Part shown: piece by piece, positions 12,707 to 55,599 of the stretch
How the letters are laid out: each line of letters opens with the position of its first letter
How positions within the stretch are numbered: the stretch's first letter is position 1
Virus record (IMG/VR): IMGVR_UViG_3300033069_001465
From: a virus
Lineage: Duplodnaviria > Caudoviricetes
Strand: one strand, 5' to 3'
DNA: 64,000 nt
Notes under the pieces: generated by a model
What the model saw: only the letters and a program-made list of their open reading frames with translations
What the model was told of the DNA's origin: nothing
Databases searched by the model: none
Position numbers and translations under genes: made by a program

Positions 12707-13516
12707 TTATTTTGTGGGATCAATAAAAAAGACAAATTCGAATACCTCTGATCGAGATGATTCTGATCCGAGGCTGATTATTTTATAAAAAATAACGACG
12801 TTAGGACAAAGTAATATTAGCCTTTTAAATATTGATCGTAAAAAAGTTTTGGAAATAATAAGCCTGCCATCTAGCCAGTAAGCATCATTATTAGTGAATT
12901 TAATAAGTGCAACAATACAATTAACAATTGATTCACAATTTGATCTCATTATATCTGCATTTGTTATGTTACCATATAACAACTCCTGTTTAAATTTTGA
13001 ACTGTCTCCAATAATATTTTTTGTAAAAATATCAAAAGTGTGTTTATAGTGTCCTGTTATAGTTAGCTCTTTATTATATTCTGCCATATCTAAAAAATCT
13101 TCAATGGTATCTAACTCATTATCTTTTAAGGACTCATTTAATTTTCTATTTGAAATTGTGATTGTATATACGTTGTAAAATGGCCCTTCATATATTTGGT
13201 TGTAGTGTATGTGATAATGCTTTATTAGTCTTTTTAAGGCCTGACCAACTATCGATTTTATATAATCTTCTTCATTGGATGCATATGTGATACGTATTTT
13301 AAATCCAGGTAAATATTTATGATCCCATTTTTCTTTTGTCCATTTTTGCCCACTTGATTTATTAGTGTATTTTTCTTTTTTTTCTCTTTTGTGTACCTGA
13401 TGATTGCATATATCTATATGTATATTATGATCACTTAATTCTAAAAAATAGTCTTCTATTTCTTCAATTTCGGACATACTATCATAATGACTATCAAAAA
13501 GTTTGAGATATCTCAT
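12707..13516 (-). CDS. Tagged two-domain protein; IEDYFLEL-family N-terminal domain and internal KLNES junction
   Basis: EEIEDYFLELSD...PGFKIRI...IHYNQI; RKLNES precedes a second domain. Confidence 0.78.
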   Translation of the reverse strand: MRYLKLFDSHYDSMSEIEEIEDYFLELSDHNIHIDICNHQVHKREKKEKYTNKSSGQKWTKEKWDHKYLPGFKIRITYASNEEDYIKSIVGQALKRLIKHYHIHYNQIYEGPFYNVYTITISNRKLNESLKDNELDTIEDFLDMAEYNKELTITGHYKHTFDIFTKNIIGDSSKFKQELLYGNITNADIMRSNCESIVNCIVALIKFTNNDAYWLDGRLIISKTFLRSIFKRLILLCPNVVIFYKIISLGSESSRSEVFEFVFFIDPTK

Positions 13517-13527
13517 AGAATATATAT

Positions 13528-13556
13528 AAAAAAAAGCACTATAATTATAGTGCTTT
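13528..13556 (-). terminator. Intrinsic terminator after the 13580..14176 gene
   Basis: AAAGCACTATA-AT-TATAGTGCTTT palindrome followed by a T run on the minus strand. Confidence 0.75.
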
Positions 13557-13579
13557 CGTTATTATTTTAATTTATTTAA

Positions 13580-14176
13580 TTAAAGTGGTAATTCTTCCTC
13601 TTCATCATCATCTTCTACCTCCTCAAATTCACCTTGTGGCTGACCTTGTGGCTGAACCTGTGGCTGACCTTGTGGCTGACCTTGTGGCTGACCTTGTGGC
13701 TGAACCTGTGGCTGACCTTGTGGCTGACCTTGTGGTTGAACCTGTGGCTGACCTTGTGGTTGACCTTGAACTTGAACAGGTGCTTGAGCATCAACTTGAA
13801 CTTGTGGCTGTCCTTGTAAAGGAGCCTGAGCTTGTGCTTGAACAGGTGCTTGTGCCTGAGCTTGAACAGGTGCTTGTGCCTGTCCTTGTGGCTGTCCACC
13901 AAATAAAGCAGATGGATCTATTTTATCGATGTTTAATCCTTGTTGAAGAACGTGTTTTGTAATTTCTTCAGCTAATTGAACATCTGAGTAGAATTGTCTA
14001 GCATTTTTATCTAATGAGTCTTTAACCTTTTTAATATAAGCGTTTAATAAAGATTGAGGAATATCAGCAGTAACATTGACTCTGTATATATCATCAACAA
14101 TCATTACACTTTCCTTAATGATTTCCTGTAGCTTTCTTTTGTTAGAATAAGATTCAAATTTTCTTATGTGTTTCAT
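13580..14176 (-). CDS. Tagged protein with Gln/Pro-rich repeats and an acidic tail (MKHIRKFES...)
   Basis: (QPQG/QPQV)n and QAQAPV repeats, C-terminal EEVEDDDEEEELPL. Confidence 0.8.
   Translation of the reverse strand: MKHIRKFESYSNKRKLQEIIKESVMIVDDIYRVNVTADIPQSLLNAYIKKVKDSLDKNARQFYSDVQLAEEITKHVLQQGLNIDKIDPSALFGGQPQGQAQAPVQAQAQAPVQAQAQAPLQGQPQVQVDAQAPVQVQGQPQGQPQVQPQGQPQGQPQVQPQGQPQGQPQGQPQVQPQGQPQGEFEEVEDDDEEEELPL
13631..13895. repeat. Coding tandem repeats: 12-bp units (CCTTGTGGCTGA/ACCTGTGGCTGA) and 24-bp QAQAQAPV units
   Basis: Direct reading; explains the spurious overlapping ORFs here. Confidence 0.9.
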
Positions 14177-14230
14177 TTTTAAGAAATAATTTTTTATATA
14201 ATCTATATATTATAATTAAAAAGCGTTTTT

Positions 14231-14734: not shown

Positions 14735-14735
14735 A

Positions 14736-15395: not shown

Positions 15396-15492
15396 ATAAT
15401 ATAATAATTTTTATTTTTTGAAAAACTTTAACTATATTTGTAATATATATTCAGTAGTATCATCTACCTTTAAAATTTTAGAAAAAATAGAC

Positions 15493-16220: not shown

Positions 16221-16225
16221 TAATT

Positions 16226-16507
16226 ATGGCAACAATAACAAAAGAACAAGTTTCTACTGAGCTAGAAGAAAAGTTGGGTCAACCTTACTTACTTATTCTA
16301 CATAATGACGATTTCAACACATTTGATTGGGTAATTGAATGCCTAATGAAGATATGTGGTCATGAGTATGAACAAGCTTCACAATGTGCTCACCTTGTCC
16401 ATTTTGTCGGTAAATGTGATGTTAAGAGAGGTGATAAGGAAACAATTTCTGAAATGTATAAGAAATTAAAAGGTGCTAACCTTAGTGCCACAATGGAACT
16501 TGCGTAA
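16226..16507 (+). CDS. clpS: ATP-dependent Clp protease adaptor ClpS
   Basis: LILHNDDFNTFDWVIECLMKICGH..EQASQCAHLVHFVGKCDVKRG is the ClpS signature. Confidence 0.9.
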   Translation: MATITKEQVSTELEEKLGQPYLLILHNDDFNTFDWVIECLMKICGHEYEQASQCAHLVHFVGKCDVKRGDKETISEMYKKLKGANLSATMELA

Positions 16508-18664: not shown

Positions 18665-18713
18665 AAAGGAATATTCCTATTTTAAATATATATTGTAAAA
18701 TCAAATTTCCCAC

Positions 18714-19325
18714 ATGAGTGCTCAAGAGAAAAAGGAACAAAAGGCAACTGAATTGAAAGATGAATTTGAAAGAATTCAGGAGAATAACAAAGACCTAGAT
18801 ATATCTAAATACCTTGCAAAAAAAGATGATCTTCCTGATTTAGGTGAGATACAAATATATGATTATGATGCGGATTTAACCGAATCCACAGAAAAAGCAA
18901 TGGATCTACTAGAAAGTCTTGTTGACTTATATTTGGGTGATTCTAAGAAGATTCTTGAACATCCCTATATTAGGAATAAGTTAAAAGAAGATGCAATGGT
19001 TTATGCTGAAACTATATTCTTATCTAAGATGACTAGAAAGAACTTTTTAACACAATTAAGACAAGTTGATAACGGTGATAATTCAGCCAGAATGCATGAG
19101 GTTATTAATCAGACAGTAGGCCAAATTAGAGATAATTCAAAATTTTCATCAACTCAGAGAACCGAGTTAGAAAAGTTCTATAAGGAAATTCGTAAAGATT
19201 TAGGATTAAATGAAATTACAACAGAAGCTTCTGCTGAAGAAGCTGAAGAAGCAGAAAGCGCAAAGATTATGGATACTAGAAGTATGAATGATATGATTGA
19301 TAAATATTTAAAAAACAAGGGTTAA
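18714..19325 (+). CDS. Hypothetical helical protein divergent from terL
   Basis: ORF track; shares the palindromic AATATATATT box at 18685-18694 with terL. Confidence 0.7.
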   Translation: MSAQEKKEQKATELKDEFERIQENNKDLDISKYLAKKDDLPDLGEIQIYDYDADLTESTEKAMDLLESLVDLYLGDSKKILEHPYIRNKLKEDAMVYAETIFLSKMTRKNFLTQLRQVDNGDNSARMHEVINQTVGQIRDNSKFSSTQRTELEKFYKEIRKDLGLNEITTEASAEEAEEAESAKIMDTRSMNDMIDKYLKNKG

Positions 19326-20680
19326 TGAATATCACTTTTAAATAGAAGCAAAAAGGTCGAGGACCAAATTTTATTATTTTTTACTTCTGATGGAATATCA
19401 TTTATATCCTCATATTCACTTGTGTCCTCACTATTTTCTGAATATTCATAATCATCAATTATCATATTAGGAAGTCTTCTTTTAATTAGGTTTTCAAAGT
19501 ATGATTTGGAAATTTTACCTTTAAATCCCTTATTTTTCTCAGCATCAATTCTTACACTTAGAGCATCAATTTTTTTTCCTTTGTAGGCACTATATGATTG
19601 AAAATCATAATAAATATTACTTGACCCTAATTTATCAGATATTTCGGTTAGTATATCTTGAATATCCTCAAAAGCCTTCGTCCATTTTTCTAACTCTTCA
19701 TATTTAAATGATTTAAATATTTTCTTTACCTCCATATCTATTTCTGATTCGGATTTATCTCCATACAGATTGAATACACAGCAATTTTTTATAAATTCAT
19801 AAAAATTCGGAGGAATTTCTTCGTAACTATTATTTTCAAATATTTTAAATGATTCAAAAGTCTTAATTAAATTAGAATAATCTATGATAACCTTTTTAGT
19901 TATCTTTTTATTTAAATCATTATCAGTTATTTGATTAACAACTAAAGCTGGTTTGTACTCCGATATATCTTCTTTAATAACAGATTTTAACCCATCATCA
20001 GTTTTTTTCAGTATTGACTTTAAAACTTGATTAGCTTCATCAACAATTTTTATTGTATCATATTGATTATCATATAGATGAACTGTATCATATCTGGTTA
20101 TTTCTTCATCAGTGAACTTATTAATAAATGTTCTATATCCAACTAAATGCTGTAGTAAGAGTTTTATTTTATTATATCTAATATCGTCATCATTTTGATT
20201 ATAGAAAGTTTCAGAAATATAATAGAAGTTTTTAATTTTCAATCCTTCTTCTTTTAGTTTTTTCTCTAACTTATTTAAAACTGTCTCATAGTTCTTTTTA
20301 TTTTGTTTTGAGCAAATGATGTAGATATCATCAGTTTTGTTTTTAAGATGTGTTATATTATTTAAATTGATTTTAAAATCAATATTGTCAATAATATCCT
20401 TGTTTAGGAATTCTTGCATTGATATTCCAATATTTCCAAGGTTGCCATTGCTTAGTTTTAGTTTAACCTTTAGTTTATTAAACATATCAATTGGAAGCCA
20501 AAAGGATTGACCATTATAATCAACTTTATTTCCCTGACTTTTATAAACCCCACTTTTTATTAAATTAAAATCTGATGTTGATATTTTAATAATAGGAATA
20601 TTAGGATTTGTTTTATCAACAATCCATACCATATTATTAATTTTTATCAAAGTATCTATATCAAAAAAATGAGATATCAT
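19322..20680 (-). CDS. Two-part protein: degenerate HAD-like N-terminal domain, internal tag (LIKTFESFKIFEN), C-terminal domain
   Basis: HFFDIDTL, ICSK, LYDN; tag-like peptide near residue 272-283; FEDIQDILTEI in the C-terminal part. Confidence 0.7.
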   Translation of the reverse strand: MISHFFDIDTLIKINNMVWIVDKTNPNIPIIKISTSDFNLIKSGVYKSQGNKVDYNGQSFWLPIDMFNKLKVKLKLSNGNLGNIGISMQEFLNKDIIDNIDFKINLNNITHLKNKTDDIYIICSKQNKKNYETVLNKLEKKLKEEGLKIKNFYYISETFYNQNDDDIRYNKIKLLLQHLVGYRTFINKFTDEEITRYDTVHLYDNQYDTIKIVDEANQVLKSILKKTDDGLKSVIKEDISEYKPALVVNQITDNDLNKKITKKVIIDYSNLIKTFESFKIFENNSYEEIPPNFYEFIKNCCVFNLYGDKSESEIDMEVKKIFKSFKYEELEKWTKAFEDIQDILTEISDKLGSSNIYYDFQSYSAYKGKKIDALSVRIDAEKNKGFKGKISKSYFENLIKRRLPNMIIDDYEYSENSEDTSEYEDINDIPSEVKNNKIWSSTFLLLFKSDIH

Positions 20681-22295: not shown

Positions 22296-25200
22296 ATGAA
22301 ATATTTAAAATATCATCAAGAATATAGAATGGAGAATCTTAAAACTGACTTTGAATCATCTACAATGATAAGCGAGGCATTTGAGAACGACATAACATGG
22401 GGTGGATCTTTATTAGGAAGGCTTATCAATTCAACATTAAGGAAGATGAAGATTGGATATAACTATACTAAAATAAATAACTTAGTCAAATTATTTAACC
22501 AAGAATTATATTCTTTATTAGAAGACTACTCTTTAAATGATGATGAAAAGAAAAAGCTAAACAACTTATCATATAGAATGTTGTTAGAAGAGATTTATAA
22601 AGAAGTTTCTAGTGAGAAAGATGTTAAAGAGAAATTAAAAATTCTTTTAGGTGATGCTTCAAATATCGGATTAGTAGATAATGTTATTTCACAAGTAGAA
22701 AAAGCTAATTTAGAAAACAAGGAGGTTCTTCTTGAAAAACTAAAGAAATTTAAAAATGATTTATTAGAAATTCAAAAAGGATTAGGAATAGATGGCGAAG
22801 GTGAAGGAGAGGGAGAAGAAAATGCGGATGATGCCAAATCTAATCCAGCAGTTATTTTTTATAACAATTCAAAATTATTATTACAATCAATTTGTAAAAT
22901 ACATAGAGATATTAAGAATAACACAGTTAAATTTGAAAAAGGTGTTAGTGATGAAATAAAAGTTGGTAATGAATATTCCTATACTAATAAAGAAGGAAAA
23001 ACTAATAGAGTTAAAGTTATATCATTAAATAATGTTATTAATATTGGTGATGATAAAGAATATTTAACTAAAGATGATGTTAAAAAGGAACCTATTAAAA
23101 AAGGATTAGTTTCAGTAGCTGTTATGGGATCAGACGGTAAATATACCGCATCTACTGTTGCAGTTGATCCATCTATGCTTAAAAAGACTACTGATAGTAA
23201 AACATCTACTTTTTTTGATGATAAGAAATATCAACAACAAAGAACTAATACATCACAAGAAATTCTAACTAAAATAGAACTAGCAAAGAAAGGACTTTCT
23301 GTATATACTGCCAAAAGAAATAAAGAAAGAGTTAATTTCTATAATAATGAAATTAAAACATACCAAGCAAAATTAGATAGAGTTAAAGGTAAAGAAGCTA
23401 CTAAAGTTCCAGGAAAGGTTTCAACTGAAACAAGACCTGATTATGATGTAACAGCAGATAAAAGAGCTAAAGAAGAAACTAAAAGAATGCATGGTCAGCC
23501 AATGACTACTGAATCTGTTATTAATGAGGAAGTTGATGCAAATCTTAGAGACCAAGAATCTCAAGCTAGATTTTCATGGAATAAAGTGGTTAATGCTTAT
23601 AATAAATCAGGAATTGCTAAATTTGTTCCATATATCGAATCAATAATTGATGTTAATGGTGCTGATAAATTAAAAGAATCTAAGAAAAAAATACTTGAAA
23701 TTGGTAGGCAAGTTGTAATAAACTATGATAATGTTGGTAAACCAATTTCTATGGATGAGCTAATATCTGAAGCTGAGGGAACCTCTGTATCAGATATTGC
23801 TAAGTCTATATCATTATTTGGTAGAGTTTTGTTAGCATTTTCTGAAGATATGGGACTTTTAGGTTCTTATGGCAATTCATATAAATCAGAAGGTGATGCT
23901 GGTGGTGCAGGAAATCATATTAAGTTATTCATCAATTCATTTAATAAAATAAAAGAGGTATACCCATCAATTAAAAAAGAATCAATTGTTAGAGATTATT
24001 CTTCTTTCATATTAATAAAAGAGGAAGCTGACGAAGCTCCTGATAATATTAAGCTTGATGAACCTAAACCTGATGAAGAACAACCAGCAGGACAGCCAGT
24101 AGAACCACAGAATACTGAAGTTCCAGATGAGAGTGATAATAGTGATCGTGTTAAAAAGTCTTGGTTCAAATTCTTTAAAAAAGATGAAGAAAAAGAATGG
24201 AAAGTAACCAAAGAGGATCAACAATTAAGAGATGATATTGAAAAGAAAGAAGGAACTGATATAAAATTATCGAATCCTGATGATGATCATATTATTAAAA
24301 TTGTAAACATTTTTGGAAGAGCATATAAATTATATGCAACTGACTATATTCCATCAGGTCGTCCTAATGGGAAGATATCATTAAAAACAATGAGAGAATA
24401 TGAACACATTGGCCAAGGTGAACCTAAGTGGAGTGCAGAAGGTACTCCTGGTTTTGGACCATGGGCGGCTAAACTTCCATATAATAAATGGCAAGATGGA
24501 ATAACTAAGATATTAGAAGATAAACAATTAAGAAGAATATTAGCTAATGCTAAGTTTGTTTCTGATGCTGAATCTAGCACAAACACTCCAATGAAATCAC
24601 CTGGATCAGGAAAAACATTACTTACATTTATAAATGACTTGTTAAATAATGATAATGGTACTTTTAAGAAGCATAGAGCTATTATATTTAAAAAATATTT
24701 TAATACTGAAGGAAGTGGTGGCGGAACAGCTCAACAAGGCAACTTACCAGATTCGCCTACTTTTGATCCAATTATTTCGAAGGATGATGAGGGTGCAGTA
24801 GACATGCCTTTTTTTAGTGAGCAATTTACTACTGGATTAAAAAACAAAAAAGGAAATATTATAAAGGTTGTATCTAAAGACGATAATGTCTATACTATTT
24901 ATCCTATTACTGCCGGAAGTGATAAAGATCCATATGTTTTATTCAGATATCAAGTGAGTAGTAAGAATAATCCTAAACAATCAATTGCTAGTGATTACGT
25001 CAGAAAGCAAACTGCCAAAACGGAAAATAAAGAGGTCTATAAAACAGATTATATTGAAGATGTGAGAAATAATGGTATTCCTTATTCAAATGATGTTAGG
25101 ATCAACATTGGATTTGCATCTACTAAAGGATTTCTAATTGGTGGTAAATTTCCATTTAAATCAATAAGTGTTGAGGATATTAAGAATAATAATTTTAATG

Positions 25201-25394
25201 GTATTAAAGATTATATCATGGAGATATCTGATATCTATTACCTAATTGTTCCAACACCAGAAAAGAATAAAAAAAGTGGTGATGTAAAGCAAAGAAACAA
25301 ATTAGTTGATGCTAGATTTACAATGACTAGAAATGATGTGGATTTAGATGGTAAGGTTAATAAAATAATAGCAGAATTTAAAAATAAGAAATGA
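22296..25394 (+). CDS. Large tagged multi-domain protein (1032 aa), probable internal virion protein
   Basis: MKYLKYHQEY tag; internal tag-like sites (TTESVINEE, IKKESIVRDYSSFILIKEE); TAATATATA at 22261. Confidence 0.75.
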   Translation: MKYLKYHQEYRMENLKTDFESSTMISEAFENDITWGGSLLGRLINSTLRKMKIGYNYTKINNLVKLFNQELYSLLEDYSLNDDEKKKLNNLSYRMLLEEIYKEVSSEKDVKEKLKILLGDASNIGLVDNVISQVEKANLENKEVLLEKLKKFKNDLLEIQKGLGIDGEGEGEGEENADDAKSNPAVIFYNNSKLLLQSICKIHRDIKNNTVKFEKGVSDEIKVGNEYSYTNKEGKTNRVKVISLNNVINIGDDKEYLTKDDVKKEPIKKGLVSVAVMGSDGKYTASTVAVDPSMLKKTTDSKTSTFFDDKKYQQQRTNTSQEILTKIELAKKGLSVYTAKRNKERVNFYNNEIKTYQAKLDRVKGKEATKVPGKVSTETRPDYDVTADKRAKEETKRMHGQPMTTESVINEEVDANLRDQESQARFSWNKVVNAYNKSGIAKFVPYIESIIDVNGADKLKESKKKILEIGRQVVINYDNVGKPISMDELISEAEGTSVSDIAKSISLFGRVLLAFSEDMGLLGSYGNSYKSEGDAGGAGNHIKLFINSFNKIKEVYPSIKKESIVRDYSSFILIKEEADEAPDNIKLDEPKPDEEQPAGQPVEPQNTEVPDESDNSDRVKKSWFKFFKKDEEKEWKVTKEDQQLRDDIEKKEGTDIKLSNPDDDHIIKIVNIFGRAYKLYATDYIPSGRPNGKISLKTMREYEHIGQGEPKWSAEGTPGFGPWAAKLPYNKWQDGITKILEDKQLRRILANAKFVSDAESSTNTPMKSPGSGKTLLTFINDLLNNDNGTFKKHRAIIFKKYFNTEGSGGGTAQQGNLPDSPTFDPIISKDDEGAVDMPFFSEQFTTGLKNKKGNIIKVVSKDDNVYTIYPITAGSDKDPYVLFRYQVSSKNNPKQSIASDYVRKQTAKTENKEVYKTDYIEDVRNNGIPYSNDVRINIGFASTKGFLIGGKFPFKSISVEDIKNNNFNGIKDYIMEISDIYYLIVPTPEKNKKSGDVKQRNKLVDARFTMTRNDVDLDGKVNKIIAEFKNKK

Positions 25395-34099: not shown

Positions 34100-34119
34100 G
34101 AAGAAATTCTCACTTTTTT
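34090..34119. terminator. Bidirectional terminator containing the stop codons of both convergent genes
   Basis: AAAAAAGTGAGAA-GAAA-TTCTCACTTTTTT; TGA at 34097-34099 (+) and 34112-34110 (-). Confidence 0.85.
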
Positions 34120-36410: not shown

Positions 36411-36848
36411 TTAATACAAAATATCATTTTTTACTATTTCAGTTTTAGATTTTTTTTTAGGAAACATTGGCTTGTATATCCATGCCGAATATCTTTTTTT
36501 ATCTGGATTCCTACCTGCCCAATAATGTCCTTTAGCCTCAAATCCAAATTTTATTAGTCTATCTTTTAATTTTTTCATATCACCAATAAACTCTTTGATA
36601 TTTAATTTATCTGAAATATTTATTAATATTTCAAAGTATTTATCATCCTGATTGTAACTACCAGAGTAGTTGCATACCGAATCATCATCATTTGTATTTG
36701 GCATGTCTCTTTTTTGTGAAAAAAATACCATTTGATATTTATCTGCAATTTGAGCTTGAAAGAAATCTAATATATCATCACAATCACTTTTTGATAGGTC
36801 TAACTTCACCTCACCATTATAACTATCAAATAATTTAAGATATTTCAT
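36411..36848 (-). CDS. Tagged hypothetical protein (start MKYLKLFDSY at 36848)
   Basis: An internal ATG gives the canonical tag; the ORF-track start at 36881 adds 11 codons. Confidence 0.7.
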   Translation of the reverse strand: MKYLKLFDSYNGEVKLDLSKSDCDDILDFFQAQIADKYQMVFFSQKRDMPNTNDDDSVCNYSGSYNQDDKYFEILINISDKLNIKEFIGDMKKLKDRLIKFGFEAKGHYWAGRNPDKKRYSAWIYKPMFPKKKSKTEIVKNDILY

Positions 36849-42509: not shown

Positions 42510-43049
42510 TTAATTATAATAGTATCCTTCAGCACCATGTGGCATTCCAGGCATTCTAATATTTAGATTTGTTCCCCTTTCAATAATATCACAAATAAAG
42601 TTGAGTAGTCCATCAATTTGATCACATTTGTAAAATGTTATTGGTGTAGTCCTATCTGGTATATAATAGCTATATTTAACATAGAACCATCCATCCTCAT
42701 TTTGGGTAATATTCATATCTACATCAAAGAATACATATTTGTTATCTATAATTCCTTTCTTTTTATATTTTAGAATAATAGTATCAAATATATCAGAATT
42801 ATCATAATCTCCATCATTTAAGTCATCATAGTTTAGTAATTTACCATGTCTATCCATAACTACATTTATACATTTTGTTTCACTATCTTCTATAAAGTCT
42901 GTATTTTTATAATCATTAAGTATTTCTGATATTCTACTAGTATATTTCTTTGAGAAGTCCTGTAGACTTTTATAACTTTCCTTATATTCATTATAATCTA
43001 TCTCTGTATATAATTTAGAGTGATCTTCAAATAATTTTAAGTATTTCAT
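42510..43049 (-). CDS. Tagged DEWF...YKCDQ family protein (MKYLKLFED...)
   Basis: DGWFYV...FYKCDQIDGLLNFI. Confidence 0.78.
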   Translation of the reverse strand: MKYLKLFEDHSKLYTEIDYNEYKESYKSLQDFSKKYTSRISEILNDYKNTDFIEDSETKCINVVMDRHGKLLNYDDLNDGDYDNSDIFDTIILKYKKKGIIDNKYVFFDVDMNITQNEDGWFYVKYSYYIPDRTTPITFYKCDQIDGLLNFICDIIERGTNLNIRMPGMPHGAEGYYYN

Positions 43050-43050
43050 A

Positions 43051-43512
43051 TTAGTCGTATGTAGGATCTATCTCCCAGTTAAAAGTATAACCAGGTATTA
43101 TTCGATGTATTATATCATAATACACATCATATGAAAAATCTGCCCAATTTGTATTATCTCTATCCCTTTTATAGAATTCGGCTCCAACCGATCCGTCCGG
43201 AGATAATGCCCAATTCATATCTGAAATATTTTTACTTATCATACTGAATCCAATAATAAATATCGATCCGTCATTAAACACTAAGTGGATACCTATTGTC
43301 GGCTTCCATTCTGTATGTGGAGAATCCATACCAAAAAATTTATAATATTTATTAGCCCATTCTCTATTTAGTGGACCACCAGCCCATTGATTTACACGTT
43401 TATGCATGTATCCAATAGATACTTCAACATTATCTAAATGCAAGTATAAAAAATCAGATAGGGATAATTTTTCTGAAATTGCCTCATTATATTGTAAAAA
43501 TGTTTTAATCAT
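43051..43512 (-). CDS. Tagged hypothetical protein (MIKTFLQYNEA...)
   Basis: Tag variant. Confidence 0.72.
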   Translation of the reverse strand: MIKTFLQYNEAISEKLSLSDFLYLHLDNVEVSIGYMHKRVNQWAGGPLNREWANKYYKFFGMDSPHTEWKPTIGIHLVFNDGSIFIIGFSMISKNISDMNWALSPDGSVGAEFYKRDRDNTNWADFSYDVYYDIIHRIIPGYTFNWEIDPTYD

Positions 43513-44596
43513 TTAGATAAGTGAGTTCAATTTTTTGAGGTGTTGCATGATGCCTCTGCTTAGCCTCTTTAAATACCTTCTCAAACTTCTCTGTATAATT
43601 ACTTAGTGACTTAGGCATTCTATCTATTATTCCGGTTGACATATAAGCCTGTATCTCATCATTTAAAACCGATTCATTATACCCAATCCCAATAATTACA
43701 TCAGAGATTGCTTTTTTCTCTTCCTTTGGTAATGAATTGACTAAATTATTCATCTTTGTTCTATATTCTTTATCTGTATAATAAAATCCATGTGCTAATT
43801 CATGGTCTAATAAATCACTATTAACATCTAGTTCATCTACACCAATTATGTAATATTTATCATTTTCTCTTTCTTTAATCTCAGTGATAATAGATACCAT
43901 TAGATCGTCATATCTATTTGGATCATCAACTTCCTCCATACACTTCTCAATAGATTCTGAAGGTATATTAAATCCACTCCAATCACTTCCATAAGTGAAA
44001 ACATCTTTTTCACCAGTTGGACCTTCGGAGCTTTTATACCATTGAATATATCTATCCCATGTAAATTTATTTCCTTGAAATTCATTTGATGATGATTCAT
44101 AATATTCTTGTAATCTTAAGAAGGTAAATGCTCTTAGTTGTTGTGATTCAATAACAACACAATAGATACCATCAGCGACTTTATATAATTCTACTTGTTT
44201 AAATAGATTTTCTAAATTGTAAGTTAGTAATGCTTCTTTAATAGTTTTTGATTCTGGATTATTTGATATTCCGATTTTAAAATTATCAGGAGCATTCGGA
44301 TAATCATGAATTATAGTATACATGTCAAATTTTTCTAACCTTAGTTTAAATTTTTCTAATTCTTTTAGAAAATTAGAAACATTATCTATCCCACATTTAA
44401 CATCAATGACATAATCACCATGTATATTTTTGAAAATATTATAATATTTATCAATCGACTCATCAATTGTCTTATTCATGATTTCCTCGGAAGTCATTTC
44501 AGGTATATCGAATTTATCTACTATTTCTAAGAATAAATCTGATATATCTTCTGGATTAAATGCATTAAAATTTTCAAATAGTTTTAAATATTTCAT
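43505..44596 (-). CDS. Tagged two-domain protein: IEDxFLE-family domain + KTIKEA junction + HEXXH metallopeptidase domain
   Basis: MKYLKLFENF; EDISDLFLEI; FLRLQEYYES..WSGFNIPS..LLDHELAHG..DEIQAYM. Confidence 0.75.
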   Translation of the reverse strand: MKYLKLFENFNAFNPEDISDLFLEIVDKFDIPEMTSEEIMNKTIDESIDKYYNIFKNIHGDYVIDVKCGIDNVSNFLKELEKFKLRLEKFDMYTIIHDYPNAPDNFKIGISNNPESKTIKEALLTYNLENLFKQVELYKVADGIYCVVIESQQLRAFTFLRLQEYYESSSNEFQGNKFTWDRYIQWYKSSEGPTGEKDVFTYGSDWSGFNIPSESIEKCMEEVDDPNRYDDLMVSIITEIKERENDKYYIIGVDELDVNSDLLDHELAHGFYYTDKEYRTKMNNLVNSLPKEEKKAISDVIIGIGYNESVLNDEIQAYMSTGIIDRMPKSLSNYTEKFEKVFKEAKQRHHATPQKIELTYLND

Positions 44597-44886
44597 ATTG
44601 ATTGTAAAAAATTTTGGACCTCTATGAATTCGTCAGCTATATAATATTCTGCATCATGTTCAGTAAATATTATAAACCAACTATCACATAACTTACTTAT
44701 TAAAATATTGTCTTTGATATATATTGAGCTCTTAGCTAATTTTATGTCTGAAAATTTTGAACATATCCATTTTATCTCGTTTTCAGATAGCTTTTCTCTT
44801 TTAAAAAAGTTCAATTTATCTGTAGCTTCTTCTTGGCTACATCTCTTTGGCATTCTATTTGATTCAAATAACTTTAGATATTTCAT
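44593..44886 (-). CDS. Tagged small protein, divergent DEWF/YKCDQ-family member
   Basis: MKYLKLFES; KLCDSWFII...YYIADEFIEVQNFL. Confidence 0.72.
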   Translation of the reverse strand: MKYLKLFESNRMPKRCSQEEATDKLNFFKREKLSENEIKWICSKFSDIKLAKSSIYIKDNILISKLCDSWFIIFTEHDAEYYIADEFIEVQNFLQSI

Positions 44887-45221
44887 AGATTATTTATTTT
44901 TTGTAATAATCTATCAATTTCGGCATTTTTAGGAATTTCTTTACATATCCAATTAATAACATCAACTGGATTCTCACCCTCTACTATCCTATGCATGAAC
45001 TCTTTATATAAATCATCATCCTCATCAATTACTTCCTTTATTTCTATTTTAAGAGCATTAAAACAAGACCAAAAGCAATCATCCTCACCCATTAATCCAT
45101 TAGTAACAATTTCTGAAAATTGTTTTTCTAATCGTGTTTGCTTGCCAAAATGTTGTTCGACTCTGCTTAATGGTTCATCATCATATGGATTAAATGCTTC
45201 AAATAGTTTTAAATATTTCAT
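44883..45221 (-). CDS. Tagged hypothetical protein (MKYLKLFEAF...)
   Basis: Tag; ATGA overlaps on both sides. Confidence 0.75.
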   Translation of the reverse strand: MKYLKLFEAFNPYDDEPLSRVEQHFGKQTRLEKQFSEIVTNGLMGEDDCFWSCFNALKIEIKEVIDEDDDLYKEFMHRIVEGENPVDVINWICKEIPKNAEIDRLLQKINNL

Positions 45222-45592
45222 TCTATAATTTCAATTTTTATTAATATTTTGTTACCTCTCTCCACTATTCCATATAATTTAGACTTTAAACTAAATCTAT
45301 TTGCAACCTTATTAACATCATTAAGAAATTCACTAACAACATTAGTATCACTATCTATGATAGATGAAACTATATATCCAGGTTTTTTTCTATAAATATA
45401 AGAGTCGGGATATCCAGAATTATTAACACCATTTTTAATATGATATGATCTACTAACACCATCATCTTTTCTATAAACTGCATTAGTTTTTTTCACAGAT
45501 ACTTTCCATTTACTATCTACTAGTTCAAGAAAGTAGTCTTCTATTAAATCAACTGGAGATACCTCATTCTCAAATGTTTTAATATATTTCAT
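45218..45592 (-). CDS. Tagged IEDYFLEL-family protein (MKYIKTFEN...)
   Basis: DLIEDYFLELVD...PGYIV. Confidence 0.75.
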   Translation of the reverse strand: MKYIKTFENEVSPVDLIEDYFLELVDSKWKVSVKKTNAVYRKDDGVSRSYHIKNGVNNSGYPDSYIYRKKPGYIVSSIIDSDTNVVSEFLNDVNKVANRFSLKSKLYGIVERGNKILIKIEIIE

Positions 45593-45937: not shown

Positions 45938-46360
45938 TTATATAAAAAATTTTAAGTTTCCAGATTTTGGTGGAAATTCATCAAAATCAATTTCGTCATA
46001 TCCACCTTTATTCCATAATAATGTGAATACTTCAGGATGTGTATGTCCATGTTCATTTCTTGTTATTCTTAGTGCATATGTTCCTTCAACTTGTGGATCT
46101 GGATAGACTTCTATTTTATTTGATGGATTATTTACATTAACATACATTTCTAATTCCTTAATAGCTTCTTTTGGAAGTATTTTATCGGTATACTTGGACC
46201 AAGGAGCCTCAGCACCATCATTGCCTAAATAGTTGTTATATTTACCATCACATTCGGAACAGCAACAATCTTGGAACTTTTTCTCTGGTGTAAATTTTTT
46301 ATAACACCACTTACACTCTTTTTCTTCCTCAAAATTTTCAAATAGTTTAATGTGTCTCAT
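45938..46360 (-). CDS. Tagged protein with a Zn-finger (MRHIKLFENF...)
   Basis: CKWCYKKF.......CCCSEC. Confidence 0.75.
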   Translation of the reverse strand: MRHIKLFENFEEEKECKWCYKKFTPEKKFQDCCCSECDGKYNNYLGNDGAEAPWSKYTDKILPKEAIKELEMYVNVNNPSNKIEVYPDPQVEGTYALRITRNEHGHTHPEVFTLLWNKGGYDEIDFDEFPPKSGNLKFFI

Positions 46361-46361: not shown

Positions 46362-46964
46362 TTATTTTCTAAATTTATTTGGAAATAAGTTTCTTAACTC
46401 ATGTCCTTGTGGTATATCTGATTTTCTAATTCCAAATATCTTTTCTTCTGGGCAGGTGTCTTTTCCATCTATATAAAAATTATTATTACAAGCCCATGTT
46501 TCTACGCTTCTATTTAATACCTGACCTACTAAAAATGGAAATCTAACATGAACATGATTAGGCTTCTCAATTCTTGTTATTCTTCCATCTGGAGTTTTAT
46601 ATACATTAAAAGCTTGGGTTTGATTCCTTTTACTAACAAATTTAACTAATATTTCATTGGATTTGGATTCCATTAAATATCCCTCATCATCACCCTTCTC
46701 TAATATTTGTGCATCTAATGCTGCTGAGAGAGGTATTATATGTCCTTCTCCCTCATCTCCCATATATCTTTGACCTTCATCTTCGGATACAACATATCCA
46801 TCTGATGTTAAAGTAACTACATAAAGTGTTCCATACTTTTTAAAATGAACTAAATCACCAGGCCCAATATCTTCATTCTCATCAGTTTCCCAATCAGATT
46901 CGCGCATTTTACCATCCTTATCTACATATAACGCGAACTCTTTAAATAATTTAATATTTTTCAT
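46362..46964 (-). CDS. Tagged two-domain protein (MKNIKLFKEF...; internal YLMES junction)
   Basis: Tag; TTATATATA box 4 nt upstream; first gene of the 9-gene minus-strand tagged array. Confidence 0.75.
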   Translation of the reverse strand: MKNIKLFKEFALYVDKDGKMRESDWETDENEDIGPGDLVHFKKYGTLYVVTLTSDGYVVSEDEGQRYMGDEGEGHIIPLSAALDAQILEKGDDEGYLMESKSNEILVKFVSKRNQTQAFNVYKTPDGRITRIEKPNHVHVRFPFLVGQVLNRSVETWACNNNFYIDGKDTCPEEKIFGIRKSDIPQGHELRNLFPNKFRK

Positions 46965-48977: not shown

Positions 48978-48985
48978 AAAATAAT

Positions 48986-49678: not shown

Positions 49679-49692
49679 TATTTTAGTTTATT

Positions 49693-50471: not shown

Positions 50472-50481
50472 AAACTATATA

Positions 50482-51813
50482 TTAATTTAAAAATTCAATT
50501 CTAACTATTGATTTAGACAGTATATCTCCAAATAAATCTTGATCCATTATCTTAATAAGTATATTACAATTAATGTGTCTAGCGAATTTTCTAAAAAGAT
50601 AGTCCATCGTATCAATTGTATATCCTCTTATATCCAAGTTACCTTTGGCTCTCCATTTTGGTTGTAATATTTCTATTTTTAAATACGTAACATTTTCTTT
50701 TGATGTATTAATTGTTGGTGATTCTATCTTTTTTTGATGACTATCAAATTTGTTGATTTTCACACTATTAATATAGAGATAGTCTAAATATATATTAGAT
50801 CGACCTCTCCATTGACGATGTAATTCATCTTGTTCCGATTCTACTATATTAATATCTCCGTCATCTAAAAATTCAATAAAATAGTCCTCTACCTCATCAG
50901 GTGACATTGCGCTCTCACGTATTCTTAAATCTACCACTCCTTCATCTTCAAGTAATTCTATTAATCCATCAAATTGATCACACTTATAGTATAATTTTGT
51001 ATTTTTTGTAATATTCTCTCTTTCAACTAAAAACCATTCATCATTTAATTTAAATATTCTGAAAAATATCATGTAAAACCCTACAATATCACTACCTATT
51101 TTAGTCCTAATTTCTATCTTATAAGATGAATGAATTATTAATTTAGACCAATCCTTTTTAAGGACTTTTTCTATTTGATCTATTTCTGACCCAAAACGTT
51201 CTAAAGCATTTACATCCTTGACCATGGATCCGAATTCATTATTATCTATTTGATGATATAATGTATTAAAAGATGCGTTCTCATTTAATGATTCTAATTT
51301 TTCTTTTATCCTTTTAACACTGTCATAAAACTTATTTACTGTATAAGACATTCCATGTTCGGTTGGCGTCAAATCTCTATTAATTGTATCAAGATGTATT
51401 CCATTTGGAGCTACTTTAGGAATAGTTTTATCATTTCTAATGTCACCTATATTTGAATCCAATGATTGAGCAATGCTTTTGAGTATACCTATTTCATAAT
51501 ACTTATTTATATCACTTTGATGACCTTTATTAAACCAATAATCTGAACCTATTCCAAAAAATGGATACCACTTTCCTGCCGCAACATCTTTTTTACCAGC
51601 ATGACCAGATGATAAATAAAATGGAATTCTTATTCCATTTATATCAAATAAAACAATTTTTCTATCTGCATAATCAATGATTTTAGATTTACCCTTGATT
51701 CTATTTTTGGTATAGTGACCATTTGAATCTTTTTCATAAGTTTCATATGGTATTTCTACCCTAATAGCATTAATCTTAGATTCAAATAAACTAAACTCTC
51801 TTATGTGTTTCAT
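50482..51813 (-). CDS. Tagged three-domain polyprotein-like ORF (unique domain + YKCDQ domain + EDYF domain); start MKHIREFSLFES at 51813
   Basis: ATGA overlap with the upstream stop supports 51813; junctions LESLNEN and LRIRES; DEWFLV..YKCDQFDGL; DEVEDYFIEF. Confidence 0.78.
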   Translation of the reverse strand: MKHIREFSLFESKINAIRVEIPYETYEKDSNGHYTKNRIKGKSKIIDYADRKIVLFDINGIRIPFYLSSGHAGKKDVAAGKWYPFFGIGSDYWFNKGHQSDINKYYEIGILKSIAQSLDSNIGDIRNDKTIPKVAPNGIHLDTINRDLTPTEHGMSYTVNKFYDSVKRIKEKLESLNENASFNTLYHQIDNNEFGSMVKDVNALERFGSEIDQIEKVLKKDWSKLIIHSSYKIEIRTKIGSDIVGFYMIFFRIFKLNDEWFLVERENITKNTKLYYKCDQFDGLIELLEDEGVVDLRIRESAMSPDEVEDYFIEFLDDGDINIVESEQDELHRQWRGRSNIYLDYLYINSVKINKFDSHQKKIESPTINTSKENVTYLKIEILQPKWRAKGNLDIRGYTIDTMDYLFRKFARHINCNILIKIMDQDLFGDILSKSIVRIEFLN

Positions 51814-52259
51814 TTGTTTGGCACCCATGGTAGTAAACCTTCTACTAATTTTTTTAATAGATTTATTAACCCATCTATTTGGTCACACTTGTAGTATTCA
51901 AATGTATAATCATCTATTTTATAAAATGTGGATCTTAACTCTTCATCGGTTGGTGATTTTGTAACCATTACTAAAAACCATTCATCATCAAACTTATTAA
52001 TAGATATTTGAACCCCAAGATATTTTAGAAATATAACATCACTTTTAAAGATATTTCTAATTGATTCGGGAACAATATTTTGCACCTCTTTTATCTCTTT
52101 ATCTTTAAAAAAGACACTTTTAGATCTTGAAAATACATCTTGATCATCTGAATCATCTGAATCATCTAAATCAAACATATCATTATATTCATCTACACTT
52201 ATTTTTTGATATAGATCATTAATACTTTCAAATGTTTTATATTTTTTAATGTAATTCAT
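51810..52259 (-). CDS. Tagged DEWF...YKCDQ family protein (MNYIKKYKTFES...)
   Basis: DDEWFLV...YYKCDQIDGLINLL. Confidence 0.78.
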   Translation of the reverse strand: MNYIKKYKTFESINDLYQKISVDEYNDMFDLDDSDDSDDQDVFSRSKSVFFKDKEIKEVQNIVPESIRNIFKSDVIFLKYLGVQISINKFDDEWFLVMVTKSPTDEELRSTFYKIDDYTFEYYKCDQIDGLINLLKKLVEGLLPWVPNK

Positions 52260-52531
52260 TTTAATTTAATAATTTTAACAACTAGATCTTGACTACCTTT
52301 TATCACTCTATGCCAACGTTTCTTCTCAACAAATAATTTAGTTCCATTCATATCAATAGGCAACTCATTATCAAATTGGAATTTCCAATCAGTAGTTCCT
52401 ATAACTTCTACTATTCTATCCTCATCATCCCAATGCCACTGTAATAATTTATCATCAGTATTCTTATTAAATGTTCTTATGTAGGCATTATCTACAATTT
52501 CTTCTTTAAAGGGGTATGGTCGTATCATCAA
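52256..52531 (-). CDS. Small cupin-like protein
   Basis: WHWDDEDRIV...WKFQFDNELP...WHRVIKG His pattern of a cupin barrel. Confidence 0.65.
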   Translation of the reverse strand: MMIRPYPFKEEIVDNAYIRTFNKNTDDKLLQWHWDDEDRIVEVIGTTDWKFQFDNELPIDMNGTKLFVEKKRWHRVIKGSQDLVVKIIKLK

Positions 52532-53489
52532 ATTCTATTTCATCCTTATTCATTTTACAATCATCACATATTCTATCATCTGTATAAATGGATTCACCAC
52601 ATATATCACATTCACCTTTACTCATATTTTCAAATTTTGAAATATAAATATTTTCCTTTATTGGAAGCTTATAAACAAGTAATTTAACACTGGTTTTATT
52701 AATATCATCAACTTCTATATCCAGACCAATTCCATTGAGTCTTTTTCTAAGTTGACTTATATTACTAAAAAAACGACTAATAGTTTCAAGCTCCTTATCT
52801 AATCCATTTTTAAATCCAATATTGACAATAAAATTTGATATCTTATCATCACTTTTTATTTGATCTATTTTAATAATAAATTTTCCACTATCAATGAGAT
52901 CTAACAAATAATCTTCTATTTCTAATTCAATTTCAGATTCTATATGCATTTTATCAGTTTTAACTAAAGTAACCTGTTTTGGTGTCCTATAATATTCTTT
53001 ACCCTTTACATCAATAAGTTTTAAAACTTTCATTATTTTACCCTTGTCTAAGTTAAAATTATATTTGGAAATCAAATCTGTTTTTATTTGAACTATTTTA
53101 GCATTTATGTTTAAATCTGATATATACACCATAGATCCATTAAAAAATCCATGTTGCTTTAAACTTCTATCCATTATTGTAGTATCTATATTATAGAGTT
53201 TTTCATTTTTCCACGGTTGATATCGAGAAACAGAAACACGTCCACTATCACTAACCGTTAGATGACCTTCCTTTTCATATGGCTCTTGATCTAATACACT
53301 TATATTACCTGATTCAAAGTTTGATTCACCACGGTCGGTGTAATGACTATATCGTTCTAAATCAGAGCTTGAATATAACAAGTCCATTTTAAAATCACAA
53401 ATCCAATCTAATTTAACCGGATTCGTAATTTTCTTTTTCTTTTTCTTTTTAAGAAAATCAAAAATATGATACTCTTTAATATATTTCAT
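52506..53489 (-). CDS. Tagged multi-domain protein with an IEDYL domain and a C-terminal re-tagged Zn ribbon
   Basis: MKYIKEYHIFD; LEIEDYLLDLID; IKENIYISKFEN followed by CDIC..CDDC. Confidence 0.72.
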   Translation of the reverse strand: MKYIKEYHIFDFLKKKKKKKITNPVKLDWICDFKMDLLYSSSDLERYSHYTDRGESNFESGNISVLDQEPYEKEGHLTVSDSGRVSVSRYQPWKNEKLYNIDTTIMDRSLKQHGFFNGSMVYISDLNINAKIVQIKTDLISKYNFNLDKGKIMKVLKLIDVKGKEYYRTPKQVTLVKTDKMHIESEIELEIEDYLLDLIDSGKFIIKIDQIKSDDKISNFIVNIGFKNGLDKELETISRFFSNISQLRKRLNGIGLDIEVDDINKTSVKLLVYKLPIKENIYISKFENMSKGECDICGESIYTDDRICDDCKMNKDEIEFDDTTIPL

Positions 53490-54235
53490 CCTGAAAATTT
53501 ATTGCTTTTTTTAATATTTTCGCTCCACTTCAATGGTTGAAAGTTTGTATATTTATTTAATTCATATACTTCTTTCTCATTTTTAGCCCATGATACCGGA
53601 ACAATATGATCTAGTTGCCAATATGTGGCATAGTTATCCCAATTCATCTCAGTTGTAAATTTGGATTCAATGTGAATTTTGAACTCTTCAAAAGTGCATC
53701 CTAGTATCTCAATTGTTTTTTTAGCCTTTTTTGTATATCTAAGTTTAAATGATTGAGATATTAAAGTCCTGATTGAATATTTTAGTTTTATTAAAGGATC
53801 CTTTTTAATATTTCTTAAATATTCATTTATCTTATTTTTATTATTTTTTTGATAATTTTTCCAATATTCCTTTCTTTCTTCGATATTATTTAAATAATAT
53901 TCTCTTTGGTATTCAATCTTTTTTTCTTTGTTATCCAAATAATAGTTTTTAGATTGCTCTAAAATTTTATCACTATTTTCATAATAATATTCTAAATTGG
54001 ATATCTTAAGAACTTCTTTATTTTTTATCCAATATTCCCTATTATAATTTTTTCTTTTTTCTTTATTTTTTAAAAAATATTTTTGTATTTTTTCTTTATT
54101 GTTTTTTCTATATTCAGAAGCTATTTTATTTTCACACTCCTTACAGGAATTTCTATGAAAATCTTTTTTTGACTTATCATTAAAGAAATAAGTTATATTC
54201 TTCTCTATGTTGCACTTTTTACAAACTTTTGTCAT
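53486..54235 (-). mobile_element. HNH/EndoVII-like homing endonuclease with an N-terminal Zn ribbon and Y..NKEK repeats
   Basis: CKKC..CKEC, ILGCT.EEFK.HIES.F..EMNWDNY..WQLDHIVP...YTNFQPL..ENIKKSN. Confidence 0.82.
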
Positions 54236-54249
54236 ATGATATATTTAAT

Positions 54250-55599
54250 TTATCTAGATCGAACAAGGTATTTCTTCACCAAAAGTTTCCAAACCGATTC
54301 CTCTCTATCACCAATTTTAATAGTTTCCTCATTATTTGCTCTTAAATTAATAGAGTGAATTAATGTTCTAATATTCATATCAAATTTAGTTGGATAGTTA
54401 TTCGTAACAAATGTTAGATATTCTAAAGCTTCTTGCTTTTTTTCCATTGTAACATCTGGGGATAATTTTCTCATAATCTCACTCATTCTAGCAAATAATT
54501 CCTTTTTACTTAAATGAACATCAACATGTAATGCCCTTGAAAGTAAAGCATCGTCAAATTTAGATTCAGGTAAATTTGAGATAAATATTATTTGACCAGT
54601 AAATTCAAATTTATTCGGAAGTTTACCACTAGCATCATATGTTTCTTGAATTTCCTTCTCATCCATTCCAGCTGAATCAAATTTATTCCCCTTTGTTAAA
54701 CTAGATATTTCTCTAATTTTATATGTATCTAATGCACCTTTAAGTATATTTATGGATTCAGAATCTTTAAAAACTGCATCACAATCATCGAAAACTATTA
54801 ACCTATGCCTATTCTTAAATAATAACTCATATAACCCAGCAGTTGTTGCTGTGCCTGTTGCAAAGTAATAATGTATATCAGCTTGCATCCCAAGCGACTC
54901 CAAGGTATCCTTGACTGTTCTAGTTTTACCAACTCCCGCATCACCAGATATAACTAATGAATTTGATTTTCCTCTTGCTACTTGAATTGTATATAGCTCA
55001 ATAGATTTGAATATATCAATTTTTAAATCGTCATCTAATTGATTAACCTTTTCACTATCTGTTTCTGCTTTTTCATCATAAGCAATTGCTGCTCTCAATT
55101 GTTCTATTTTTCTTTCTTGGGAAGCTATTGATTTAGGACTTCTTAGTTTACCCAATCTTTTAACTGCTGCTTCTAATTCTTGTCTTGGGTCGTATCCACC
55201 TTCTTCTATATCTAACTCCTCCTTAACTAAAATTGCTGGATCTTTTACAAAGTTTAATATTTGTGGTAATACTTTAGTAATTGATTTTTGTCCTAATTCT
55301 AAAGTATATTCGGGATTCTCATCAAATTTAAAACTTGTCCATATATCTATACTATGAATTTCTGATCTAATGTCATCTTCTATCCAGTTGAATCTGATAG
55401 CTTTAGATGATCTTAATGAAACAAATAACTGTCCACTTAGGAACAAGTCTTTCTTTTGTATATGCCATATTTCCTCATATTCATATAAATCTACATTAGA
55501 GTTTTTAGTAATGTATGATACAATGGTATCTATAGCCTTTTTCTTATCTTCTTGTAAAAAAGCTTCGTTGAATATTTCAAATTTGTTTATATGTTTCAT
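54250..55599 (-). CDS. Tagged protein with a C-terminal AAA+/P-loop ATPase
   Basis: MKHINKFEIFNEA; Walker A GDAGVGKT, Walker B IVFDDCD, LKGALD, IFISN, ALLSR. Confidence 0.82.
   Translation of the reverse strand: MKHINKFEIFNEAFLQEDKKKAIDTIVSYITKNSNVDLYEYEEIWHIQKKDLFLSGQLFVSLRSSKAIRFNWIEDDIRSEIHSIDIWTSFKFDENPEYTLELGQKSITKVLPQILNFVKDPAILVKEELDIEEGGYDPRQELEAAVKRLGKLRSPKSIASQERKIEQLRAAIAYDEKAETDSEKVNQLDDDLKIDIFKSIELYTIQVARGKSNSLVISGDAGVGKTRTVKDTLESLGMQADIHYYFATGTATTAGLYELLFKNRHRLIVFDDCDAVFKDSESINILKGALDTYKIREISSLTKGNKFDSAGMDEKEIQETYDASGKLPNKFEFTGQIIFISNLPESKFDDALLSRALHVDVHLSKKELFARMSEIMRKLSPDVTMEKKQEALEYLTFVTNNYPTKFDMNIRTLIHSINLRANNEETIKIGDREESVWKLLVKKYLVRSR

Follow-up and report, generated by a model that had tools for sequence, protein, structure and literature searches.

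The 64,000-nucleotide (nt) stretch of DNA considered here (hereafter, the window), from the IMG/VR virus record IMGVR_UViG_3300033069_001465 (Duplodnaviria; Caudoviricetes), raises the question of why part of a short leader peptide that begins many of its genes returns inside several longer open reading frames (ORFs). A sequence-only reading took these ORFs for polyproteins made of fused modules and cut into single effectors by a Glu-specific prohead protease. We found that the ORFs (Table 1) are in-frame fusions of small modules and that the motif at their seams is real. That they would be cargo polyproteins cut by the prohead protease is the best reading of the sequences, with about an even chance of being right.

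The window phage is an uncultured, huge T4-like phage. Its DNA (G+C, 27%) includes genes for a T4-type large terminase, tail sheath, gp15-like sheath stabiliser and gp44-like clamp loader, and the terminase shares 65% identity with its counterparts in the uncultured phages LR745206 (635 kb) and LR756502 (642 kb). The strict leader, M-[KRNI]-x-[ILV]-[KRNQ]-x-[FY] (for example MKYLKLFE), begins 24 of the 78 called genes, and a form shorter by one residue begins about eight others; the tail, terminase and replication genes are without this tag. The sequence [LIVMFY]xE occurs within the first 18 residues of 82-88% of tagged proteins versus 39-48% of untagged ones, with the leader Glu mostly at position 8, 9 or 11. 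In the two megaphages LR745206 and LR756502, the DNA pattern of the leader occurs 53 and 62 times (controls, 0-1). In the Tenacibaculum phages PTm1 and pT24 it occurs only once or twice, and the tag is absent; the published virion data for both are therefore uninformative here.

Table 1. Fused ORFs, their seams and stand-alone modules in the window (aa, amino acids; HMM, hidden Markov model)
Feature	Position	Strand	Seam or joint	Composition or basis
Three-module fusion ORF, 448 aa (ORF 50482)	50482-51828	-		Leader; N-domain, aa ~22-180; YKCDQ, aa 187-302; C-module, aa 307-448
Seam 1 of ORF 50482	51277-51297	-	LESLNEN, aa 178-184	L-N-E-N joins N-domain end to YKCDQ start
Seam 2 of ORF 50482	50911-50928	-	LRIRES, aa 301-306	I-R-E-S joins YKCDQ module to C-module
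Two-module ORF, 269 aa (ORF 12707)	12707-13516	-	RKLNES, aa 124-129, nt 13130-13147	
452-aa ORF (ORF 19322)	19322-20680	-	LIKTFESFKIFEN, aa 271-283, nt 19832-19870	Conserved ~280-aa protein; 170-aa extension
1032-aa protein adjoining tail sheath gene (ORF 22296)	22296-25394	+	Internal tag-like IKKESIVRDYSSFILIKEE, aa 559-577, nt 23970-24026	Acidic linker follows
363-aa ORF (ORF 43505)	43505-44596	-	KTIKEA, aa 117-122, nt 44231-44248	Leader; EDYF-type module, aa 1-121; seam; HExxH domain
Two-module ORF, 200 aa (ORF 46362)	46362-46964	-	YLMES, aa 96-100, nt 46665-46679	
327-aa ORF (ORF 52506)	52506-53489	-	IKENIYISKFEN, aa 277-288, nt 52626-52661, precedes ribbon	Weak EDYF-like middle; C-terminal zinc ribbon
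Stand-alone tagged YKCDQ paralogue, 149 aa	51810-52259	-		BLAST and alignment to middle module of ORF 50482
Stand-alone YKCDQ paralogue (ORF 42510)	42510-43049	-		BLAST and alignment to middle module of ORF 50482
Stand-alone YKCDQ paralogue	11246-11617	-		BLAST and alignment to middle module of ORF 50482
Stand-alone tag with zinc ribbon directly after (ORF 45938)	45938-46360	-		MRHIKLFENFEEEKECKWC; sequence alignment
Stand-alone tagged EDYF-type module, 143 aa (ORF 12248)	12248-12679	-		Iterated HMM search
EDYF-type member	45218-45592	-		Iterated HMM search
EDYF-type member	36411-36848	-		Iterated HMM search
EDYF-type member (ORF 44883)	44883-45221	-		Iterated HMM search

Eight internal peptides had been quoted as lying between distinct domains. 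All eight were found, at most 1 nt from the coordinates given for them, and all eight lie at borders set independently from stand-alone or shorter homologues. In ORF 50482, a library-wide HMMER search identified a stand-alone tagged counterpart of each module: P0019 (185 aa) corresponds to residues 6-179 (N-domain), P0099 (149 aa) to residues 187-302 (YKCDQ module), and P0103 (164 aa) to residues 307-448 (C-module), and both quoted peptides of this ORF fall exactly in the gaps between the three. Two-module forms (P0082 and P0155) and fused orthologues (P0001, with 68% identity, and P0152-P0154) were also found. The true start of the ORF is probably Met6, MKHIREFSLFES. Seam 1 is conserved in P0001, P0153 and P0154, and its SLNEN is in register with SLFES of the P0155 leader. 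At seam 2, the aligned counterparts of RIRES are KFNES in the P0103 leader and KLFE[DNS] in the EDYF-family profile, and the orthologues have SISES, MIREN, MIREG or KINES. The pieces after the two junctions had been said to match stand-alone YKCDQ and EDYF paralogues elsewhere in the window; this holds for the YKCDQ module (BLAST E values of 7.5e-8, 1e-4 and 0.004), whereas the EDYF match is limited to the first ~32 residues, that is, to the leader and an acidic helix (hhalign probability, 63%). No relatives of ORF 50482 were found in LR745206, LR756502 or the nearest virus record, a viral-contig scan with it gave no match, and the YKCDQ family is absent from LR745206.

Both seams of ORF 50482 are in linkers in an AlphaFold model of residues 165-448, built from a 47-sequence alignment (a single-sequence model, with a predicted local distance difference test score (pLDDT) of 31, was not used), so that the domain boundaries agree with the earlier claim and neither motif lies inside a folded domain. 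The mean pLDDT is 77, and the YKCDQ module reaches 93-97. Seam 1 falls where the last helix of the N-domain ends, in the sole stretch with a pLDDT under 50, and seam 2 is part of a 14-residue linker (pLDDT ~70) from the last helix of the YKCDQ module to the first helix of the C-module. In this ORF the putative cleavage motifs are thus in exposed linkers by the model, and in the other ORFs the borders were set from homology.

The N-domain itself (window 51288-51765, minus strand; aa 22-180) has the pattern IPYxT...PFYLSxGxGGK...GKWYPFFG...GDIR and more than 600 relatives, many of them inside giant proteins of 1.6-5.8 thousand residues with Pro/Ala-rich linkers. Since it had no match in Pfam, the PDB sequences or the ESM Atlas, it is, to judge from its sequence, an undescribed and widespread domain. 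In P0155 (314 aa, from a Logan contig), a duplicated seam, ..MIREGYSMPPDEIQDYLLEDERIITQLDIKEGYSMPPDEIQDYF.., suggests slippage or recombination at the joint.

The other fused ORFs show similar borders. The paralogue ORF 12248 (143 aa) aligns to residues 1-124 of ORF 12707 (BLAST E 9e-19), and RKLNES follows, in register with LKLFDS of the leader of ORF 12707 itself; the second half then opens with an EDYF-like helix. The C-terminal half of ORF 46362 corresponds to the stand-alone tagged protein W01_242588 of LR745206 (106 aa, MKHLKSFNEGTLPEKE...; E 1.5e-39), whose 16-residue leader includes the seam position, and LMES is kept in the orthologue in the syntenic contig L007. In ORF 43505, the EDYF HMM covers residues 1-121; the HExxH orthologue in L007 starts with MNHIKLFEEFNN-LLTY, at the place where the window has the EDYF module and SKTIKEA-LLTY. 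At its C-terminus, the same L007 protein continues through ..NVSENFNPYDD into a fused orthologue of ORF 44883, where the stand-alone form has MKYLKLFEAFNPYDD. In ORF 52506, ISKFENM-SKGEC is in register with IKLFENFEEEKEC, the N-terminus of ORF 45938 (IKLFENF..EC..C), and two L007 proteins have ENIKKFEDF and NMKNIKSFEAF internally before the same zinc ribbon. Thus, the modules found fused in the window stand alone with a tag elsewhere, as the sequence-only reading had supposed, and comparison of orthologues revealed both split and fused forms among the relatives. No function could be assigned to the fused ORFs from Pfam, PHROGs, a PDB sequence search or the ESM Atlas, and they had no significant Pfam or PHROG match.

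Two ORFs in this set differ in their architecture. The orthologues of ORF 19322 in LR745206 (283 aa, ending ..LKKTFESFIYKRY) and LR756502 (282 aa, ending ..LIKAFESFKFGK) stop just past ..TFESF.., and the window protein thus carries a 170-aa extension after the motif. Viral-contig scans with this extension and with the second half of ORF 12707 gave no match. The ORF 19322 family (L001:18471-19322; L002:18488-19336) opens with xxHFFDxDxL, perhaps a HAD-like motif, and the two relatives have a tag-like peptide at the extreme C-terminus (..TFESFIYKRY and ..AFESFKFGK), possibly a C-terminal version of the signal. In the orthologues of ORF 22296, the corresponding place has KILKTFESFVSVILESE (16.8 bits with a position-specific scoring matrix (PSSM) of the tag) and ..YAKFISINEA; the tag-like amphipathic stretch ends in ILES or INEA, and an acidic stretch follows in each.

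The C-terminal tail of ORF 42510, NLNIRMPGMPHGAEGYYYN, aligns with DLRIRESAMSPDEVEDYFIE of ORF 50482, and from this alignment looks like a decayed seam followed by the start of a C-module that has been lost. A related contig has a mini-ORF consisting of the leader only (L005:755-790, MKHIKKFIFEY and a stop) and, in another frame, a YKCDQ module after it (L005:784-936); this may be a pseudogene due to a frameshift, or an error of assembly.

Placement of the motif at the seams is not a matter of chance. Among 58 database relatives of the YKCDQ family, chosen regardless of the motif, [LIVMF]xE[SANG] occurs within 21 residues past the end of the module at 9 of 12 independent seams; composition-matched shuffles give an expectation of 1.0-1.9, and none of 2000 reached nine. 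The three remaining seams have TLEA, IAEK and SFEA, hence Glu is present at all 12. By semi-global alignment, five seams are in register with stand-alone leaders (RIRES/KFNES, SLNEN/SLFES, ISKFEN/IKLFEN, RKLNES/LKLFDS and NVSENF/KLFEAF). The seams keep a hydrophobic residue at P3, Glu at P1 and a small residue at P1', and have mostly lost the Phe at P2 and the MKYLK part. With hmmalign, no consistent placement of the seam motifs was obtained, as the spacer separating them from the module core differs in length by 4-10 residues.

The tag as a whole does not recur in this manner. Beyond the first 20 residues, [LI]xE[SAN] occurs 46 times in the window versus 36.9 +/- 5.8 in shuffles (P 0.08), which is no enrichment, and it is also found inside the terminase and the sheath; with the loose motif at chance frequency, bare counting is uninformative. 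Searching the window with the PSSM for the full 11-residue tag, the best internal score was 9.3 bits (NLIKTFESFKI), with a median maximum of 9.8 in shuffles and 16-28 bits at N-termini. Nor was an internal excess of the tag found among the 921 ORFs of LR745206 after removal of mis-called starts, the source of most strong 'internal' matches. The PSSM being no better than shuffles, with no excess in the window or LR745206, we abandoned the view that the tag recurs in full inside proteins, and retain only its second half, hydrophobic-x-Glu-[S/A/N/G], as the part that does.

One possible explanation, and the main rival to cleavage, is that the ORFs are plain gene fusions, made by loss of stop codons or small deletions, in which relic leaders persist in multi-domain chains that are never cut. 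The chance frequency of full internal tags fits such relics, as do the mostly degenerate seam motifs and the end of ORF 42510 described above; tandem arrays of paralogues and tight packing of genes would ease fusion. However, neutral decay should erase the Glu and the P3 residue as fast as the P2 Phe, yet Glu stands at 12 of 12 YKCDQ-family seams, in modules that are only ~30% identical. We regard this explanation as rather unlikely, yet as a serious alternative.

The motif might also matter as DNA. If modules were shuffled by recombination at the short homology that leader-coding DNA provides, the peptide would need no role at the seams. Compared with P0155, ORF 50482 looks as if its N-domain had been inserted between MKHIREFSLFES and ..KLESLNEN, and P0082 resembles a recombinant of the two YKCDQ modules of the window, as would be expected of such a joint. 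However, the codons of the leader vary synonymously (Leu as TTA, CTA, TTG, CTT or CTG; Lys as AAA or AAG; Tyr as TAT or TAC; His codons as well), so that DNA identity is low and conservation is at the level of the peptide, and old seams retain the motif despite diverged flanking DNA. A purely DNA-level joint thus seems very unlikely. The conservation of internal seams across diverged lineages, together with the synonymous codons of the tag, supports selection on the motif as a peptide, in line with the earlier proposal that it is not merely a signal for translation initiation.

A candidate for the enzyme is found in the relatives. L043, a near-identical relative taken from a 99.6-kb JGI contig, encodes one protein identical to one of the window's and, where it overlaps the end of the window, has 74% of 31-mers in common with it; it extends past the left edge of the window and carries Portal_T4, a protease-scaffold gene and a Gp23 capsid protein. 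Its 721-aa protein (L043:14753-16918) has an N-terminal head maturation protease (phrog_207, E 3.9e-30). The match to PF03420 (E 8.6e-5) is 22.5 bits, for a curated cut-off of 27; the relatives W01 and W02 match the same family with E values of 1e-4 and 2e-5. Fused to this protease, in the middle of the protein, are ~10 tandem repeats of YSEY[IL]AE[NSH]LDKNI. The same arrangement, with 10-11 repeats, is found in LR745206 (198546-200669) and LR756502 (225272-227371). The scaffold-like region of these genes has 10-11 tandem 14-residue repeats (Y[IL][AS]E[NSHD]) and a long acidic stretch. In the Gp23 capsid protein of the three phages, VLEN and INEN are kept in the first 45 residues. Judged through these relatives, the lineage appears to encode a T4-type (S77, assemblin-like) prohead protease, and both its scaffold and its major capsid protein carry the same putative cut site as the leader.

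The hydrophobic-x-Glu-small sequence could instead be a linear motif with a role other than cleavage, such as a docking peptide for a chaperone, scaffold or hub, present once per module. The orthologues of ORF 19322 keep ..[IK][KT][TA]FESF.. at the extreme C-terminus, and a long amphipathic stretch resembling the tag is conserved inside ORF 22296 and its orthologues; both are compatible with a binding peptide that acts independently of position. However, the scaffold-like half of the protease gene contains some 10 copies of the motif, and in T4 this is where protease sites are classically found (PMC9026906); T4 Alt is processed at its C-terminus as well, so that C-terminal motifs fit cleavage too. 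Docking is, in our view, an unlikely explanation, less so than a DNA-level joint but more so than relic leaders.

If tagged proteins meet a Glu-specific protease, accidental sites in them are expected to be selected against. We compared tagged proteins with untagged proteins of similar size, beyond residue 20, in the window, LR745206 and LR756502. The ratio of observed to shuffled [LI]xE was 0.93 in tagged versus 1.17 in untagged proteins for the window with LR745206, and 0.92 versus 1.10 for LR756502. In the pooled data, 15.3% of Glu residues in tagged proteins and 19.6% in untagged ones have Leu or Ile at -2 (odds ratio 0.74, Fisher P 1.6e-8); with Asp, Lys, Asn or Gln in place of Glu, the odds ratio lies at 0.91-1.07. 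Bootstrapping by protein gave [LI]xE rate ratios of 0.73 (0.53-1.00), 0.75 (0.64-0.85) and 0.82 (0.71-0.94), and 1.0-1.1 for Asp. There was no deficit of [LI]xD, [LI]xK, [LI]xN or the reversed E.[LI], and [LI]xD was if anything raised. Uncut fusions with relic leaders leave this specific depletion unexplained, and a docking peptide does not predict it.

Cleavage by the prohead protease is preferred because it would account for the retention of seams, the scaffold repeats, the avoidance of sites and the exchange of split and fused forms together, and because the leader matches the capsid-targeting sequence of T4, with its targeting half and its L/I-x-E processing half. By this mechanism, the first part of the leader, MK-x-[IL]-K-x-[FY], would target proteins to the capsid, and the second, hydrophobic-x-Glu followed mostly by Ser, Asn, Ala or Gly, would be a cut site for a T4-type head protease. 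When modules fuse, the seam would retain the second part and drop the first. One N-terminal leader would then bring the entire chain into the prohead core, where the protease would cut after Glu at the leader and at every seam, and the freed small proteins would stay within the head and later pass into the host together with the DNA. Since the pieces would be separated again, fusion and splitting of adjacent cargo genes would be cheap, and thus both forms would be found among relatives.

Several observations weigh against cleavage of the fused ORFs. In many N-terminal tags of the window, P3 is Lys, Thr or Ser instead of Leu or Ile, and P1' is Asp, Glu or Ile. With 10-40% of genes tagged, the cargo would have to be unusually large. 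An N-terminal leader is missing from ORF 19322, whose targeting would therefore depend on a signal at the C-terminus or inside the protein. For ORFs 46362 and 43505 the register of the alignment is ambiguous, with an offset of ~3 residues in the latter, and seam 2 of ORF 50482 is modelled with moderate confidence and without clear disorder. The protease gene lies outside the window, being seen in relatives only, and its Pfam S77 match is under the curated cut-off. Finally, the depletion of L/I-x-E is moderate, and its three data sets come from related phages and are thus not completely independent.

Among known systems, the capsid targeting and processing of T4 (IPI-III, Alt; gp21) has the closest parts. 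In T4, L/I-X-E is the sequence after which the protease gp21 cleaves, and the scaffold ends up in many pieces; of the 10 residues of the capsid-targeting sequence, 4 and 7 serve targeting, 8 and 10 are needed for processing, and Asp in place of that Glu blocks processing (PMC9026906). The likeness extends to the head gene set (portal, Gp23 capsid, protease, terminase and gp15), to a short N-terminal leader that ends in hydrophobic-x-Glu and has targeting and processing halves, to the use of one leader on unrelated, fast-evolving small proteins, and to a scaffold with many copies of the site. The full leader at N-termini and the processing half by itself at seams match this anatomy. However, dozens to ~100 genes per genome are tagged here versus a handful in T4, the leader consensus (MKYLKLFE/MKHLKxFNES) is not the T4 sequence, and the protease is fused to scaffold-like repeats. 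In-frame fusions of cargo that keep the processing half at seams were not described for T4 in the literature that we found.

A second likeness is to polyvalent proteins, in which several unrelated conflict-type domains are joined in one chain that presumably accompanies the DNA (Iyer et al. 2017, PMC5512222). That work itself drew the analogy to polyproteins, and proposed release through embedded peptidase domains (PMC5512222). Chains with at least two unrelated domains are also found here, namely ORF 50482 with three modules and ORF 43505 with the EDYF module and HExxH domain, and the N-domain of ORF 50482 occurs within giant proteins as well. In contrast, putative release here would be at head-protease sites inherited from leaders, the chains are of 200-1000 aa, and the modules are also single tagged genes. 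None of the polyvalent marker domains (MuF, ART, zincin-like metallopeptidase (MPTase), ParB-like, PBECR and others) had a significant match in the fused ORFs or in four giant relatives of the N-domain.

In phiKZ, 201phi2-1 and SPN3US, head and inner-body proteins are cut at [S/A/G]-x-Glu by prohead proteases (PMC10052503, PMC5694885). These very large phages likewise have a Glu-specific head protease with many substrates, some multiply cut; however, there long propeptides are removed, cut up and discarded, P3 is small whereas here it is hydrophobic, and neither a common short leader nor the fusion of stand-alone modules is described. The polyproteins of RNA viruses and retroviruses resemble the present ORFs in that a viral protease would divide one translation product into separate functional proteins at short motifs in linkers. 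They are unrelated, and the purpose here would be the loading of cargo into the capsid and not expression of a whole genome; furthermore, here every module is also its own gene. On these comparisons, the system may be a new variant of T4 capsid targeting and processing, with a functional likeness to polyvalent proteins.

Some other genes of the window are of separate interest. A 93-aa ClpS homologue (16226-16507, plus strand; PF02617, E 6.8e-17), an N-degron adaptor, adjoins the terminase, and its conservation extends to LR745206 and LR756502. A tagged 198-aa protein (13580-14176, minus strand) has a long repeat rich in Gln, Pro, Gly, Val and Ala (QGQPQVQPQ...) and an acidic tail, EFEEVEDDDEEEELPL. 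Two paralogues of ~500 aa with 41% identity (9469-10953, plus strand; 34110-35684, minus strand) have weak matches to DUF7487, MTES_1575 nuclease and Mom-like families, and are probably mobile endonuclease-type genes.

We tentatively propose, with somewhat less than even confidence, that in these phages the head-protease site serves as a universal joint for cargo genes: some 100 leader-bearing proteins per genome would fuse and split freely, their sequences would be purged of L/I-x-E, and effectors would be delivered to the host in bulk, amounting to a tailed-phage strategy based on polyproteins. The depletion of L/I-x-E offers a new and cheap computational test for any phage with a Glu-specific head protease. 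If the proposal is true, a simple sequence rule would predict virion cargo from metagenomes, and the leader and seam would be a natural design for the delivery of multiple proteins by T4-type capsids. Should cleavage at the seams take place, a single short leader and a three-residue site would suffice for many different proteins to be loaded into a phage head and released from it, which would account for the ability of huge phages to carry a large and fast-changing set of injected effectors.

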